Sequence record: PQ790658.1
Origin: Pseudomonas phage Clew-1
Reading direction: 5' to 3' (one strand)
Length of the DNA: 45,276 nt
Below are positions 6,516-14,148 of this stretch, piece by piece; the first letter of the stretch is position 1; every line of letters begins with the position of its first letter. Under the pieces are notes generated by a model. The model was not told the DNA's origin. It ran no database searches and worked only from the letters and a program-made list of their open reading frames with translations. A program made the translations under genes and the position numbers.

Positions 6516-7478
6516 ATGGCCCGTATCAAGTATGCCTTCGGTATGAAGTCCAAGAATGGCGAGGATAAAGCTCTCAATGTAATGACCTCTGCCTCCTGCT
6601 TCGGTACCATGGAAGGCCAGGTAACCTACGGCTATAAGCTCGACGGCTGGACCTTCATCTGCTCCCGCCGAAGCAAGAAGTTCATCGATGTACTCAACAA
6701 GTGTACCCAGGGTGAACTCAAGACCATCACCATCGGCGGCAAGGCCTTCAAGATCCCGAAGGTTCACTTCTGGTCTTACGAAAGCAAGGCCAAGAATTCC
6801 ACCTTCGAGAAGTATTCTAACGGGACGGAAATGATTTCCCCCACCCATCACGGAAAAGAAGGGGTCTGCGGTATCTACTTCAACCCCAAGGAACATACCC
6901 TAGATTCCTGGTATCCCATCATGAAGTTCCTCTTCAAGCTGGTATCCAGTGGTCTAGACCCTCAAGGTCGAGAGGAGAAGATTCACATGGAGCTTGCTGA
7001 AAAGTATGGCTTCTGGAAGTCCTACCTCGCAATGTCCTTCCACGGGTTGATAGCCAACGGCTACACAGGGTATCCCCTCACCAACTACATGTTCAGTAGT
7101 GATTGGGAGGATATCAAGAAGGGCGATATCCACATCCAGTCCGCCGAAGAGTGCAACCGATTCGGTCGTTGGATGCCCAACCGTGATGCCCCAGGTGGAC
7201 GTGAGTGGGTAAGGTCCAAGCCCTACAGGTCAGAATACCTGGGGATTAAGCTGAACAAGGTGGAGGTGGTAACTATTTACCCCCAGCCAACTATCTTCGG
7301 CAAGAAAACCCCCTACGACACCGTGGATACGGAACTGGGAGGATTCCTCCGGCTTAATACCAGTAGCTGTGAAAAACACGGAGTGGTCAAGCTGGGGATC
7401 ATGGGTGAAATTCACTGGGGTCGCGGATCAAGGGATATCCCCCTGGCCCTGGAAGGATTCATAGAGAAAAACTTCTGA
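6516..7478 (+). CDS. Hypothetical protein (320 aa), first gene of the enzyme cluster
   Basis: AAGGAG ribosome-binding site. No recognisable motif by eye. Confidence 0.6.
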   Translation: MARIKYAFGMKSKNGEDKALNVMTSASCFGTMEGQVTYGYKLDGWTFICSRRSKKFIDVLNKCTQGELKTITIGGKAFKIPKVHFWSYESKAKNSTFEKYSNGTEMISPTHHGKEGVCGIYFNPKEHTLDSWYPIMKFLFKLVSSGLDPQGREEKIHMELAEKYGFWKSYLAMSFHGLIANGYTGYPLTNYMFSSDWEDIKKGDIHIQSAEECNRFGRWMPNRDAPGGREWVRSKPYRSEYLGIKLNKVEVVTIYPQPTIFGKKTPYDTVDTELGGFLRLNTSSCEKHGVVKLGIMGEIHWGRGSRDIPLALEGFIEKNF

Positions 7479-7496
7479 CAACCAAGGAGAAATCAA

Positions 7497-8453
7497 ATGG
7501 GAATGTATGCAGCCCATAACGTGTACTATGACGCCGATGGCTCTGTTGTACACCACTACTCGGTCAAGGGAATGGCCGAACATGCAAACTGCTTCGGAGC
7601 CTATTGCGACAAGACCTCCAGAGTTGGGGGTGACCGGTGGGTTACCGGGGTTGGCCACCTGTTGGTATCTACCCACGAGAATACCTCTGGTAAACTGGTG
7701 GAGTTCCTGAACAGTGATTTGGTCAACAGGATCACCGATGGTGGTATTCTCTCGGCTTCCATCGACTGGCCTACCCGTTGGTGGGATTACAACGATGACC
7801 TCAAGAACCTCAGCGATCCAGACCACTTCTCACCCCCAGGCCGCCGGCAGGCAGTGTATGTACGGGTGGACCTCAGGAAGAACGCATCGGCCATCATCTG
7901 TGCCCTCCGAATGGGCGATCGCTTGTGGTCTGTAGGTTATTCCATGCGTCGTATTCCGAAGGAAGCTCAGGATAAAATCCTGGGATTCAACGCAGAACTT
8001 CTTACCCTCGCGGCTTGTGCCCAGGTAGGTAGCACTGCTTATTGCGACAGCTACCCGGCCATGTTCCCGGTGACTGCTGGTGAATACCGGGAGGGCTGCG
8101 AGAGCCACGGCTGGGAGGTGGATGACAGCTACATAAGAGAGGTCATGGATGGTATCGTAGGTGGATACAAGAATATCACCTACTTCGATATTAAGAGCAT
8201 CCATGAGCGGACTCGCGAAGAGTTCAAGTACAAGCTCAAGCATCACGACGCTGAGTTGTGGCAAGGGTATACCAAGGATGATTGCCTGATCGAATGCGAC
8301 GGTCTCGAAGGTGTACCTAATGACCGAATCCTTTCCATCATGGCCCCAATCACCATTGACGTAGGTGATCCAGGTCGGGAAAGGTCCGAGGTCGTACCCA
8401 CCAGCCAATATAGCATTCCCGAAATCCTCGAAAAACTGGAGAACATGCAATGA
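7497..8453 (+). CDS. Hypothetical protein (318 aa)
   Basis: AAGGAG ribosome-binding site. Contains GTACTATGAC copy 4 in-frame as V-Y-Y-D. Confidence 0.6.
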   Translation: MGMYAAHNVYYDADGSVVHHYSVKGMAEHANCFGAYCDKTSRVGGDRWVTGVGHLLVSTHENTSGKLVEFLNSDLVNRITDGGILSASIDWPTRWWDYNDDLKNLSDPDHFSPPGRRQAVYVRVDLRKNASAIICALRMGDRLWSVGYSMRRIPKEAQDKILGFNAELLTLAACAQVGSTAYCDSYPAMFPVTAGEYREGCESHGWEVDDSYIREVMDGIVGGYKNITYFDIKSIHERTREEFKYKLKHHDAELWQGYTKDDCLIECDGLEGVPNDRILSIMAPITIDVGDPGRERSEVVPTSQYSIPEILEKLENMQ

Positions 8454-9250
8454 ACAACGCAATCCCCCTGATCGGTGCAGATCCCGAAGTTTTCGTCGGC
8501 TACGACCGTAACCCCCAGAGCGTCATCGGCTTCATCGGTGGAACCAAGGAAGCCCCCTTGGCTGTAGCCGGTGGTGCCGTCCAAGAAGACAACGTTCTTC
8601 TGGAGTACAACATCGACCCGGCCAGTACCAAGGAAGAGTTCGTGGAGCGTATCGTCTCCGTTCGACTCCTGGGTGCCCAGATGCTCCACCCCTTCGGCAT
8701 GAACATCATCGAGAACCTGTCGTCTCACCTGTACGACGAGGAACTCCTCCGCAGCTTCGGCCCCCAGGCTTACGTCTTCGGTTGCGAGCCGGACTACAAC
8801 TGCTGGACTCGTCGTCAGAACGTGATGCCGAAGGATGCCCCTCCGACCCTGCGCACTGCTGGCGGCCACGTCCATATCGGCTTCAGCCACATCGAGCGAG
8901 TAACCAAGGCTACCACCCGAGAAGTCATGCAGATGTGTGACTACCTCCTGGGCCTGGCGTCTGTCATCCTCGATGGTGACACCCAGCGTAAGAAGCTGTA
9001 CGGCAAGGCTGGTGCAATGCGCTATAAGCCCTACGGCGGCGAGTACCGTAGCCTATCGAACTTCTGGATCTTCTCTGTCGATCTGACCGAGTGGGTCTAT
9101 GAAATGGCAGTGCAAGCCTACACCTCCAAGCACCTCCTGGAGGAGTACAAGTCGATCGTATCCGGTGATGAAGTCCAGCGAATCATCAACGAGAACGACG
9201 GCGCTGCGGCGGTAGCTGCACTTCAAGCCCTGGGGGTGAAGTATGAATGA
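8450..9250 (+). CDS. Hypothetical protein, possibly a divergent carboxylate-amine ligase (266 aa)
   Basis: Start overlaps the upstream stop. Weak pattern ADPEVFV ... TAGGHVHIGFSH recalls the E-x-E / S-T-H-x-H signature of the downstream amidoligase. The assignment is tentative. Confidence 0.5.
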   Translation: MNNAIPLIGADPEVFVGYDRNPQSVIGFIGGTKEAPLAVAGGAVQEDNVLLEYNIDPASTKEEFVERIVSVRLLGAQMLHPFGMNIIENLSSHLYDEELLRSFGPQAYVFGCEPDYNCWTRRQNVMPKDAPPTLRTAGGHVHIGFSHIERVTKATTREVMQMCDYLLGLASVILDGDTQRKKLYGKAGAMRYKPYGGEYRSLSNFWIFSVDLTEWVYEMAVQAYTSKHLLEEYKSIVSGDEVQRIINENDGAAAVAALQALGVKYE

Positions 9251-12744: not shown

Positions 12745-12832
12745 GCGTTAGTAATAGCCCCTGGCCGACCCATGCCGGTTCCTAAGATGCGTACATGGGA
12801 TCTGACTTAGGATTACAGGGGCTATTGCTGGC
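12745..12832 (+). promoter_or_regulatory. Conserved stem-loop element, copy 2 (GCGTTAGTAATAGCCCCTGG ... CAGGGGCTATTGCTGGC)
   Basis: Long stem enclosing a roughly 52-nt loop that contains nested CCCATG/CATGGG and CCTAAG/CTTAGG inverted repeats. Same TATTGCTGGCT box as copy 1. Lies 33 nt before the start of gene 12866. Confidence 0.5.
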
Positions 12833-12865
12833 TTCACTACCCTCAACAGAAACAGGAGATTTGCC

Positions 12866-13750
12866 ATGTTCTATATCTATAAAGGTGCCCGCCCCTCTGC
12901 TGGTGCTGTAGCCCTTCGTAACGCCCTGGGTGCTCGAATCCTTCGCTCCGAGGGGTCTACCTATCGGGGTCGTGCGGGTACTGCGGTAATCAACTGGGGT
13001 ACCGTTGGTGCAGAGGCTCACCGACTCCGGGATATTGCCCCTGTGTTCCTCAACGACCCGGCAGTTGTTCACCGCTGCTCTAACAAGCTGGAGTTCTTCC
13101 GCCACTTCGAGGCCAATGCTCCCCACCTGATTCCTCGTTGGACCGAGCGCTGGGAAGATGCCTTGGGTGTACTCAATATCTCTGGTCGAATGTATGCACG
13201 TACCGATCTGAACGGCCATAGCGGTCGTGGTATCCATCTGGTGTGTACTGTCAACGATGCAGAAGTTGCTGCAATCGATGCTCTCCGTAGACAGGGCCAC
13301 TACCCGGTACACATCTACGGTCACACCCACATCCCGGATGTTATCACCAGGGCACAACTGTTCACCCAGGGAATCGTCGGTAAGCGTACCGAGTTTCGAG
13401 CCCATGTGATCCGTGGGGAAGTAGTACTTCTCCAAGTCAAACTCCGCCGTGTTGCCAATGAAATGGTGACCAACGAAGGACAAAGCATCGTTCGTAACGT
13501 AGCTGGCGGCTGGGTCTACGGGGTTAACGATGCAATGGACCGTGATGGTGCTGAGCAGGCTATGTCGGCAGCGGCAGAGGCTATCCAGGTAGCTGGACTG
13601 GATTTCGGTGCAGTAGATATCATCTTCCAGCACGCCACTGGCCGAGCGTTTGTCTTGGAGATCAACACCGCCCCAGGGCTGGACGCTGAAGGCAGCGCAC
13701 TGGAGGCCTACGTCAAAGGCTTCAACAAAATCTTCGAGGAGACTATCTAA
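12866..13750 (+). CDS. ATP-grasp ligase (RimK-like) (294 aa)
   Basis: C-terminal AFVLEINTAPGL is the classic ATP-grasp signature. Glycine-rich loop GHSGRGIHLV. AGGAG ribosome-binding site. Confidence 0.75.
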   Translation: MFYIYKGARPSAGAVALRNALGARILRSEGSTYRGRAGTAVINWGTVGAEAHRLRDIAPVFLNDPAVVHRCSNKLEFFRHFEANAPHLIPRWTERWEDALGVLNISGRMYARTDLNGHSGRGIHLVCTVNDAEVAAIDALRRQGHYPVHIYGHTHIPDVITRAQLFTQGIVGKRTEFRAHVIRGEVVLLQVKLRRVANEMVTNEGQSIVRNVAGGWVYGVNDAMDRDGAEQAMSAAAEAIQVAGLDFGAVDIIFQHATGRAFVLEINTAPGLDAEGSALEAYVKGFNKIFEETI

Positions 13751-14148
13751 TGGCTGTTCGTGTTTTCGTTTATGGTACTCTCCTGTCGGGTTTGTACAAC
13801 CACTACCTTCTGGAAGGGGCCGAGTTCATCGGTAATGCTGTATCCTGCGAGCGGGGTCTGATGTACTCCGCTGGCGGCTTCCCCATCCTCTCCTTCGCCT
13901 CCCGTGCTGACCTCATCGTAGGTGAAATCTGGCAACTCCCCGAAGGCGAGAAGGGGGAGGAAATGCTGGAGAACCTGGATGCCCTGGAGGGTTATCCGGG
14001 TTGGTATGATCGTACCCTCAAGGATTTCCGAATCAATGGGGAACGAATCAAGGCCCTGGTGTACCATCAGGATAGCCATATGGCGATGGATATCGTCCAA
14101 GATGGCGACTGGAAGGCACACCTGGCAAAACGACAAGGAGCAGTATAA
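13750..14148 (+). CDS. Gamma-glutamyl cyclotransferase-like (GGCT/AIG2 family) (132 aa)
   Basis: N-terminal VFVYGTLLSG (the YGTL motif) and the catalytic-Glu context LDALEGYPGWYDR. Start overlaps the upstream stop. Confidence 0.7.
   Translation: MAVRVFVYGTLLSGLYNHYLLEGAEFIGNAVSCERGLMYSAGGFPILSFASRADLIVGEIWQLPEGEKGEEMLENLDALEGYPGWYDRTLKDFRINGERIKALVYHQDSHMAMDIVQDGDWKAHLAKRQGAV

Follow-up and report, generated by a model that had tools for sequence, protein, structure and literature searches.

Phage Amidoligase Cassettes and the Clew-1 Locus

A gene cassette combining carboxylate-amine ligases with a glutamine amidotransferase (GATase) is known from phages of the phiEco32 and phiRIO-1 type. 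Section 16 of one account terms it a "peptidoglycan modification cassette" and names phiEco32, 7-11, PA11, tf, MR299-2, LUZ24, and PaP3 as carriers (PMC5498523). The underlying cell-wall prediction is attributed in three papers to Iyer 2009 and Hardies 2013 (PMC5498523; PMC11945000; PMC10580990), and the hypothesis has been summarized as a cell-wall modification preventing superinfection (PMC10580990). The same module was reported in 2025 in a LUZ24-like phage (PMC11945000), its genes are annotated in UFV-P2 (PMC3890496) and tf (PMC3517423), and that of phage PSA-HP1 was described as "expressed immediately" (PMC7082346). In this literature the cassette is the subject of predictions only; no experimental product was found, in agreement with an initial annotation of the DNA considered here, which had noted that none was shown for a podovirus cluster of this kind. 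That DNA is positions 6516–14148 of Pseudomonas phage Clew-1 (PQ790658.1), whose whole 45,276-nucleotide stretch is referred to as the window. The phiEco32/RIO-1-type module is published, with LUZ24 and PaP3 among its named carriers, and the region is the LUZ24-lineage version of the known phage amidoligase, or putative peptidoglycan-modification, cassette and not a new system.

By nucleotide similarity the window is a LUZ24-like Bruynoghevirus genome, since the best megablast matches to 6516–14148 (phiPA01_EW, PaP4, DL54, and LUZ24) share 95–97% DNA identity with it; 90 Pseudomonas phage records were matched, 61 of which cover at least 80% of the query. The LUZ24 counterparts are gp14–gp22, names used throughout, followed by gp23 and the primase/helicase gp24 (at 14526, directly downstream of the block). 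This annotation gives nine genes where eleven had initially been counted, while the co-oriented, tightly packed plus-strand arrangement ahead of the replication region was confirmed by the coordinates. The locus shares with the phiEco32/phiRIO-1-type cassette the same five families (COOH-NH2 ligase type 2, Amidoligase_2, class-II glutamine amidotransferase (GAT-II), ATP-grasp, and gamma-glutamyl cyclotransferase (GGCT)), in the same order and at the same place upstream of the primase/helicase. It differs in possessing two paralogues with an N-terminal Cys-[FYW]-Gly (CFG) motif, a DUF7195 protein, and two conserved 5′ stem-loops, and in lacking the class-I GATase/C26-like gene that Zobellviridae and Rhizobium phages add.

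We consider it probable, at roughly 0.7, that the cassette is a multienzyme pathway in which a short peptide or amide adduct of the glutamate/glutamine type is assembled on an acceptor, amidated, and trimmed. The analysis establishes membership of the folds, integrity of the catalytic residues, co-occurrence, and synteny; we infer reaction order, enzyme pairing, and acceptor, with the individual steps drawn from family chemistry. The same lines of evidence support the central proposal of the initial annotation, namely an amide-bond pathway that makes or attaches a peptide-like moiety and that is coherent rather than a set of stray metabolic genes, the synteny extending across unrelated podophage groups.

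Enzyme Assignments and Active Sites

The fold assignments first proposed from motifs (amidoligase, GAT-II, ATP-grasp, and GGCT) were corroborated by Pfam, PHROG, and family profiles, and every motif quoted for them was found in the translations (GFEVELEG, STHLHMD, MCGLVGF, CASCGK...CEFICGEC, a Ser/Gly/Gln linker, AFVLEINTAPGL, VFVYGTL, LEGYP, ADPEVFV, and GHVHIGF). The protein encoded from 8450, gp16, had been listed among four unknowns with the guess that it was a second ligase. The guess was correct: gp16 matches PF14395 (COOH-NH2_lig, E 5.8e-8, 32.7 bits against a gathering cut-off of 25) and PHROG 3815 (E 4.7e-119), and is thus a recognizable ligase. The other three, gp14, gp15, and gp17, keep their status as proteins of no assigned function, as does the 73-residue gp20 (PF23825, DUF7195, E 5.2e-19).

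Both predicted glutamine-synthetase (GS)-like ligases display conserved acidic, His, and Arg residues. In gp16, D11, E13, K33, D47, E52, H140, H142, R180, R191, K193, E198, and R200 are invariant across 11 lineages. Its partner gp18 matches PF12224 (Amidoligase_2, 23.9 bits against a gathering threshold of 22, E 4.3e-5) and PHROG 7631 "amidoligase" (E 1.8e-196), and retains a GS-like active site with ExExE, HxH, and R elements, the residues invariant in 10 lineages being E33, E35, E37, D53, S55, R57, E61, H98, H100, E122, R133, E190, and R192.

The N-terminal nucleophile (Ntn) domain of gp19 (residues 1 to about 208) matches GATase_6 with E 2.4e-26. The protein starts MCG, placing the nucleophilic Cys directly after the initiator Met, and C2, R83, the N109-G110 pair, and D129 are invariant in nine orthologues, the arrangement of a class-II GATase. 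A middle region with the Ser/Gly/Gln linker lacks conservation across lineages, and a Pfam scan of the C-terminal 300 residues returned no domain. A terminal CxxC...CxxC pair, a predicted zinc ribbon (window 12370–12507), is present in 8 of 10 orthologues. A weak EgtC-type NCBIfam match was also observed.

The gp21 family was placed by a profile of 10 divergent orthologues, which matches the RimK structures 7qyr, 7qys, 5zct, and 4iwx with E values of 1.1e-8 to 1.7e-7 over positions 37–249 of 263. The profile therefore spans nearly the whole ATP-grasp domain of RimK, a family with the relatives MptN, CofF, and LysX, and the ATP- and Mg-binding Lys and Asp/Glu/Asn residues are conserved (K74, E176, R178, K192, D251, E265, and N267 are invariant), whereas sequence identity is low and the single-sequence Pfam and NCBIfam scores fall far under their cut-offs (R2K_2 and Dala_Dala_lig_C, E about 0.04; rimK_fam, 18.9 bits against 143). 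Further matches are to PHROG 2599 (E 2.3e-102) and NCBIfam MptN (2e-5). Finally, gp22 matches PF06094 (E 4e-20, 73 bits against a cut-off of 22.8) and conserves Y8 and G9 of the YGxL motif, E59, and E80 of the LEG motif in nine lineages. Judged from the alignments, the predicted catalytic residues of gp16, gp18, gp19, gp21, and gp22 are thus intact and invariant across 9–11 lineages.

Co-occurrence and Gene Order

Distribution was assessed by tblastn against 50,697 phage records. The four core queries retrieved closely similar numbers (gp16, 318; gp18, 314; gp21, 310; gp19 N-terminal domain, 340) and nearly the same genera, with about 120 records from Pseudomonas, 94 from Escherichia, and 21 from Vibrio, followed by Aeromonas (9–11), Proteus (8), Salmonella (7–9), Cronobacter (6), and Pseudoalteromonas (5). 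The co-occurrence across related phages that had been put forward as a check is thereby borne out. Many lineages share the arrangement GAT-II, COOH-NH2 ligase, small protein, Amidoligase_2, and ATP-grasp, with GGCT present or absent, among them Kuravirus Bas89, PA11, Aeromonas phage LAh_6, Citrobacter phage CVT22, Pseudoalteromonas phage RIO-1, Rhizobium phage RHph_I3_11, PaP3, tf, Bjorn, and Pantoea phage TacPo2. In most loci the primase/helicase lies downstream of the cassette, either directly or past a few small open reading frames (ORFs), a layout seen in Bruynoghevirus, Krylovvirus tf, Bjornvirus, Kuravirus, Zobellviridae, Rhizobium phages, and metagenomic contigs. No primase is annotated in the examined stretches of LAh_6 and TacPo2, the gene order being kept in LAh_6. 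GAT-II, COOH-NH2 ligase, Amidoligase_2, and ATP-grasp genes thus co-occur in conserved order near replication genes.

This strict co-occurrence and synteny favor one pathway over unrelated auxiliary genes. Many GenBank records name gp19 a GlmS-type aminotransferase, which would make it part of a scatter of auxiliary metabolic genes, for instance for amino-sugar or nitrogen metabolism. Only the glutaminase portion of gp19 (residues 1–113) aligns to GlmS structures, the SIS/isomerase domain is absent, and the NCBIfam glmS score is 28.7 bits against a cut-off of 418; identity with GlmS was rejected. Together with the co-occurrence, the domain evidence appears to have largely refuted the auxiliary-gene explanation, to which we assign almost no probability.

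HNH homing-endonuclease genes repeatedly interrupt or sit within the cassette (locus L003, 8478–9789 and 13614–14123; locus L008, 9532–9990). In Kuravirus Bas89 the annotated COOH-NH2 ligase coding sequence is a join that skips an HNH gene, and UFV-P2 has one between amidoligase and amidotransferase (PMC3890496). In LAh_6, genes for ribose-phosphate pyrophosphokinase and nicotinamide phosphoribosyltransferase lie directly downstream of the ATP-grasp gene (locus L005, 17027–20165), and the ATP-grasp proteins of LAh_6 and Kuravirus bear an additional C-terminal domain of about 130 residues.

Noncatalytic and Accessory Proteins

Four observations are added here to the published description of the cassette: the universality of gp17, the linkage of DUF7195, the zinc ribbon of gp19, and the CFG-motif family. 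Single-sequence searches retrieved few relatives of gp15 and gp17, and alignment queries reached further. By iterated profile searches a gp17 homologue was found in all ten loci, following the COOH-NH2 ligase directly or past a few small ORFs. Its AlphaFold model is confident (predicted local distance difference test (pLDDT) 87.9; predicted template modeling score 0.82), and in a Foldseek comparison with viral models the significant matches were uncharacterized proteins only, the named ones deriving from cassette-bearing phages. As with gp15, a profile search of PDB sequences returned nothing meaningful for the family, and Pfam scans of all members gave no consistent match. We regard gp17 as a universal cassette component that is probably an adaptor rather than an enzyme. 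DUF7195 follows the amidotransferase, directly or past one HNH gene, in PaP3, tf, Bjorn, LAh_6, Bas89, and TacPo2 and likewise in metagenomic contigs; R20, P23, and P57 are invariant, and the C-terminus ends in E, P, H, N, or G according to lineage. Both gp17 and DUF7195 are co-inherited with the cassette enzymes.

Small carrier proteins were considered by analogy with known ligase systems. Pupylation (PafA/Dop with Pup) and the LysW systems employ GS-like or ATP-grasp ligases that act on a small protein at its C-terminal Glu, and the cassette resembles them in its carboxylate-amine ligase types. Two candidates were examined, gp20, whose EDYFE end resembles the EDWGE tail of LysW, and gp23, which ends ...QMEE. 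Both were rejected because the C-termini of DUF7195 members and of gp23 are not conserved. As no small protein of the cassette ends in a conserved Glu or Gln, membership of a Pup- or LysW-type system was likewise rejected, and an S6-like or LysW-like acidic-tailed partner is not conserved in the cassette.

The first two genes encode fast-changing proteins. Identity to LUZ24 is 84% for gp14, 92% for gp15, and 98–100% for gp16–gp24, and identity to PaP3 is 37–40% for gp14 and gp15 versus 58–67% for the enzymes; gp14 is a local divergence hotspot, consistent with diversifying selection. Homologues of gp14 were found only in Bruynoghevirus and phage tf, and the protein had no Pfam, NCBIfam, or PADLOC match, its PHROG (9504) being without annotated function. 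For gp15, 1.84 billion representative proteins yielded only 20 relatives, in which C32, R138, D184, R238, Y258, K260, and D261 are invariant. Three metagenomic contigs continue beyond the gene, and in each a distant relative (17–24% identity), itself preceded by a gp14-like gene, stands immediately before a COOH-NH2 ligase called by Pfam; a fourth contig ends within the next gene. An AlphaFold model of gp15 from a five-sequence alignment (pLDDT 45) was not usable for a fold search.

A short motif links these otherwise unalignable proteins. The Cys of gp14 (C28) stands in SASCFGTMEG and that of gp15 (C32) in HANCFGAYCD, and the same Cys-[FYW]-Gly motif at residues of about 16–38 is common to cassette-adjacent proteins of 270–480 residues in Kuravirus, LAh_6, RIO-1, a Rhizobium phage, TacPo2, and Bjorn. 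In strict form and within the first 60 residues it occurs in 10 of 117 large ORFs of the loci, all 10 being these accessory proteins, whereas shuffled sequences average 0.7 and never exceed 4; among the 57 six-frame ORFs of at least 150 residues in the window it is confined to gp14 and gp15. Comparison of the gp14 and gp15 families by hhalign, with each other and with similarly placed proteins of other phages, yielded no probability above 12%, and neither was assignable to a recognized fold or family. The pattern points to a family that is hyper-divergent, often present as paralogues, and marked by an invariant Cys; from the loci compared, it accompanies the cassette in most lineages. A papain-like reading of the motif (C-W/F-A/G-x-F), which would make these classical Cys-His peptidases, is not supported because the gp15 family has no invariant His.

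Proposed Chemistry and Candidate Acceptors

In the pathway we favor, gp16 and gp18, as two different GS-like carboxylate-amine ligases, would each form one amide bond via an acyl-phosphate intermediate, and gp21 would add L-glutamate onto a free carboxylate in the manner of RimK. The N-terminal Cys of gp19 would release ammonia from glutamine for amidation, probably together with its neighbor gp18; alternatively, gp19 may hydrolyze a gamma-glutamyl amide. The pairing is likely: the two genes are adjacent and acquired mutations together in Bruynoghevirus FJK, where each of two lines that evolved independently gained missense changes in both amidoligase and amidotransferase (PMC11450229). Removal of a gamma-glutamyl group as 5-oxoproline, for maturation or recycling, would fall to gp22. 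The beta-barrel protein gp17 and gp20 would be noncatalytic, likely adaptors that serve either the acceptor or the assembly of a complex, and gp14 and gp15 would be fast-evolving, lineage-variable accessory proteins with an invariant Cys. The activity of the cassette probably falls in the early to middle phase of infection, its genes being transcribed together with those for replication, a timing inferred from gene order, the lack of plus-strand terminators in the scan, and transcription in a different cassette-bearing phage.

Several findings weigh against this pathway. For none of the cassette members is there a measured product, substrate, or phenotype. Profile searches of PDB sequences with the gp16 and gp18 families returned nothing meaningful, and the substrate classes of the two ligases are not inferable because no solved relatives are detectable by sequence. 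The C-terminal two-thirds of gp19 vary among lineages, and gp21 scores below the Pfam ATP-grasp family thresholds. The short, divergent gp22 was detected in just 151 of the 50,697 records; this may partly reflect search sensitivity, and GGCT may be dispensable.

The published candidate for the acceptor is peptidoglycan. Here the three ligases would put unusual peptide linkages on a precursor or stem peptide and the amidotransferase would amidate them, the altered wall blocking superinfection or modulating lysis. Besides the predictions cited above, all 318 gp16 records come from peptidoglycan-bearing hosts, mostly Gram-negative, and a gene for an SPFH-domain lipoprotein lies just upstream of the cassette here, as it does in two of the four related contigs from metagenomes. 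In the lipid II amidation complex MurT/GatD, an ATP-dependent ligase activates the carboxylate of D-iso-Glu and a glutaminase delivers ammonia, a Cys4 zinc ribbon being present, and stem peptides contain gamma-linked D-Glu. The cassette is alike in its ligase-plus-glutaminase logic and in its zinc ribbon. The folds differ (Mur-ligase and class-I GATase in MurT/GatD; GS-like ligase and class-II Ntn GATase here), and no sequence relationship of cassette proteins to MurT/GatD was detected. The proposal is purely predictive, no signal peptide, Mur-ligase, transpeptidase, or SH3b-specific match was obtained with any cassette protein, and within a short lytic cycle presumably just newly made wall could be modified. 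A macromolecular target would suit the gp17 barrels and the zinc ribbon just as well. Peptidoglycan is therefore a possible acceptor that we nonetheless regard as unlikely.

Modification of a protein would account for other features of the cassette. In this scheme a host or phage protein would be glutamylated or peptide-tagged, as RimK does with S6, in the service of takeover or anti-defense, with gp17 or a CFG-motif protein as adaptor or target. The nearest solved relatives of gp21 are RimK S6-glutamate ligases, and host proteins are the predicted substrates of R2K and RimK-like ATP-grasps in phages (PMC4431377; PMC7824862). SH3/Tudor/Sm-like barrels in gp17 and the gp19 zinc ribbon are typical macromolecule-binding modules, the very fast evolution of gp14 and gp15 is as expected of host-interaction arms races, and the parallel FJK mutations arose under host-range selection (PMC11450229). 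Against these stand a target that is not known, the want of a conserved acidic C-terminus in gp17, gp20, and gp23 such as marks RimK-, LysW-, or Pup-type substrates, and a complement of three ligases and a cyclotransferase that exceeds the needs of simple glutamylation. A protein acceptor is likewise possible and, to the same degree as peptidoglycan, unlikely.

The enzyme types would also suit a free gamma-glutamyl compound (a gamma-glutamyl-polyamine, glutathione-like peptide, signal, or antimetabolite) made or consumed to aid phage replication. GS-like ligases, an Ntn amidohydrolase with a weak EgtC-type match, and a GGACT are enzyme types of gamma-glutamyl metabolite cycles, as in the Puu/Pau gamma-glutamyl-polyamine pathways, and the class-I GATase/C26-like gene added in Zobellviridae and Rhizobium variants, together with the PRPP synthetase and NAMPT genes that adjoin the cassette of LAh_6, point the same way. 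In butirosin biosynthesis, the ATP-grasp ligase BtrJ is paired with the AIG2/GGCT-like cyclotransferase BtrG, which later removes the gamma-glutamyl group as a protecting group. The pairing of gp21 with gp22 is similar, and the phage tf record annotates its gp22 homologue as "BtrG-like". The cassette differs from the butirosin system in having no acyl-carrier protein or aminoglycoside genes and in adding two GS-like ligases and an amidotransferase. More generally, it includes no transporter or carrier-protein genes, and the universally conserved noncatalytic gp17, DUF7195, and the zinc ribbon would not be expected of a simple metabolite pathway, so that we judge a free metabolite rather improbable.

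Amino-acid-decorated thymidines occur in other phages, and the cassette adjoins replication genes, two points that could suggest the attachment of amino-acid-like groups to phage DNA. The analogy to DNA hypermodification had been raised initially and finds no support. Among the 68 annotated LUZ24 genes there is no dUMP/dCMP hydroxymethylase, 5-hydroxymethyldeoxyuridine (5-hmdU) DNA kinase, aGPT-Pplase, or DpdA-type gene, so that neither the 5-hmdU/aGPT-Pplase nor the 7-deazaguanine DpdA/preQ0 type of system is represented. Of 16 restriction enzymes, 11 cut the DNA of U17, a LUZ24-like phage that bears the cassette (PMC11945000), and 13 of the 16 have sites in the window; such genomes are routinely sequenced and assembled with no anomalies reported. 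DNA as the acceptor is very improbable.

Returning to the favored amide-bond pathway, its role may be that of a phage-specific macromolecule-tagging or host-takeover system rather than a cell-wall modifier, a suggestion that we make tentatively and hold to be somewhat unlikely as a whole. Taken jointly, it would have a glutamyl-type adduct placed on a host or phage protein, or a novel metabolite formed, by the three ligases, the amidotransferase, and the cyclotransferase, with gp17 as the adaptor and the CFG-motif proteins (gp14, gp15, and those of Kuravirus, Lahexavirus, RIO-1, Rhizobium phages, and others) as a new family of Cys-dependent enzymes or modified targets that set host specificity. 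A PADLOC scan of the cassette proteins returned no match.

Layout and Other Elements of the Window

Coordinates are collected in Table 1. Within the block five junctions overlap by 1–25 nt (gp15/16, 4; gp16/17, 8; gp17/18, 25; gp21/22, 1; and, at its downstream edge, gp22/23, 1), and the gaps measure 9–18 nt (gp14/15, 18; gp18/19, 11; gp19/20, 9) except for the 127 nt between gp20 and gp21. The overlapping starts and stops amount to translational coupling, which was counted in favor of one system. A plus-strand terminator scan inside the block found none but one weak 5-bp match, and the gene packing suggests that the block and the replication genes are transcribed as a single unit.

Table 1. 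Positions of the cassette genes, CFG-motif proteins, and other elements (in the window unless a locus is named)
Feature	Coordinates	Strand	Description
gp14	6516-7478	+	320 residues, CFG-motif protein
gp15	7497-8453	+	318 residues, second CFG-motif paralogue
gp16	8450-9250	+	predicted phiEco32-type COOH-NH2 ligase, GS-like carboxylate-amine ligase
gp17	9243-9812	+	189 residues, predicted non-enzymatic partner, small SH3/Sm/Tudor-like beta-barrels
gp18	9788-10963	+	predicted Amidoligase_2, GS-like carboxylate-amine ligase
gp19	10975-12507	+	predicted class-II (Ntn) GATase with C-terminal zinc ribbon
gp20	12517-12738	+	DUF7195 small protein, 73 residues
gp21	12866-13750	+	predicted RimK-family ATP-grasp ligase, alpha-L-glutamate ligase type
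gp22	13750-14148	+	predicted GGACT/AIG2-like gamma-glutamyl cyclotransferase
Stem-loop copy 1	6449-6493	+	17-bp stem, about 20 nt upstream of gp14 ribosome-binding site/start
Stem-loop copy 2	12746-12834	+	same basal stem plus branched insert, about 20 nt upstream of gp21 ribosome-binding site/start
CFG-motif proteins, window	6516-7478, 7497-8453		gp14 and gp15
CFG-motif proteins, L003	6350-7543, 7556-8485
CFG-motif proteins, L005	5604-6458, 6562-7434, 8243-9043, 9040-10008
CFG-motif protein, L007	3469-4311
CFG-motif protein, L008	7443-8357
CFG-motif protein, L012	1808-3238
CFG-motif protein, L011	6500-7879
TACT/RTGMC sites	1878, 2998, 5239, 7524, 9489, 14349, 20749, 24845, 29357	+	two inside the cassette
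SPFH/Band_7 gene	5471-6295	+	absent from LUZ24
Sigma-70 consensus promoter	4685-4713	+	TTGACA-17-TATAAT with TG
Promoter-region repeat	4700-4751, 17885-17936	+	52 nt, 85% identity
Four tRNA genes	44174-44502	-	Pro-TGG, Tyr-GTA, Asp-GTC, Asn-GTT
tRNA-Tyr	44255-44341	-	87 nt

Two long, perfectly paired stem-loops share the arms TAGTAATA.CCCCT / GGGG.TATTGCTGGCT, which occur exactly twice in the 45 kb. Copy 1 folds at -33.2 kcal/mol (z = -6.7 against shuffled controls) and copy 2 at -52 kcal/mol (z = -5.2). The initial annotation was right in counting two conserved copies and wrong in having them bracket the cluster, because copy 2 lies inside it, between gp20 and gp21. Both stem-loops are present in LUZ24 and PaP3, and in copy 2 of phage tf the long stem is retained via compensatory changes on both sides (GUAAUAACCUCGGA / UCCGAGGUUAUUGC). 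Neither has a U-tract, so that copy 1 is not an intrinsic terminator, and neither matches an Rfam family. They may be RNA processing sites of the RNase III type or 5′-stabilizing hairpins.

The mechanical ORF call for the SPFH/Band_7 gene upstream of the cassette begins at ATG 5567. Sequence in frame upstream of this ATG encodes a lipoprotein signal (KKILGLLAIAALAITAGC) and contains no ATG, GTG, or TTG; the start is likely the ATT at 5471, which follows TAAGGA. Band_7 lipoprotein homologues (MKRILLAALAVATIGLVGC...) occupy the same place in the metagenomic relatives L013 and L016. Farther upstream lies a perfect sigma-70 consensus promoter, from which a stretch comprising the -10 hexamer and about 38 nt beyond is repeated downstream of the cassette and may be a common promoter-plus-leader element of two middle operons. 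The nick-site consensus of phage tf, TACT/RTGMC, occurs nine times on the plus strand and not at all on the minus strand of the window, a bias that matches the single-strand interruptions, likewise specific to one strand, that tf and LUZ24-type genomes are described as having. The tRNA genes were called by ARAGORN, the tRNA-Tyr not being reported by Rfam at its gathering threshold.

Implications

This cassette of five to nine genes is present in about 0.6% of sequenced phage genomes, among them those of therapeutic-candidate Pseudomonas phages of the LUZ24 group and the E. coli Kuraviruses. Identification of its product would assign roles to two Pfam ligase families in which no member is characterized, would test the idea of cell-wall remodeling for superinfection exclusion, and might uncover a new way in which phages modify host molecules.

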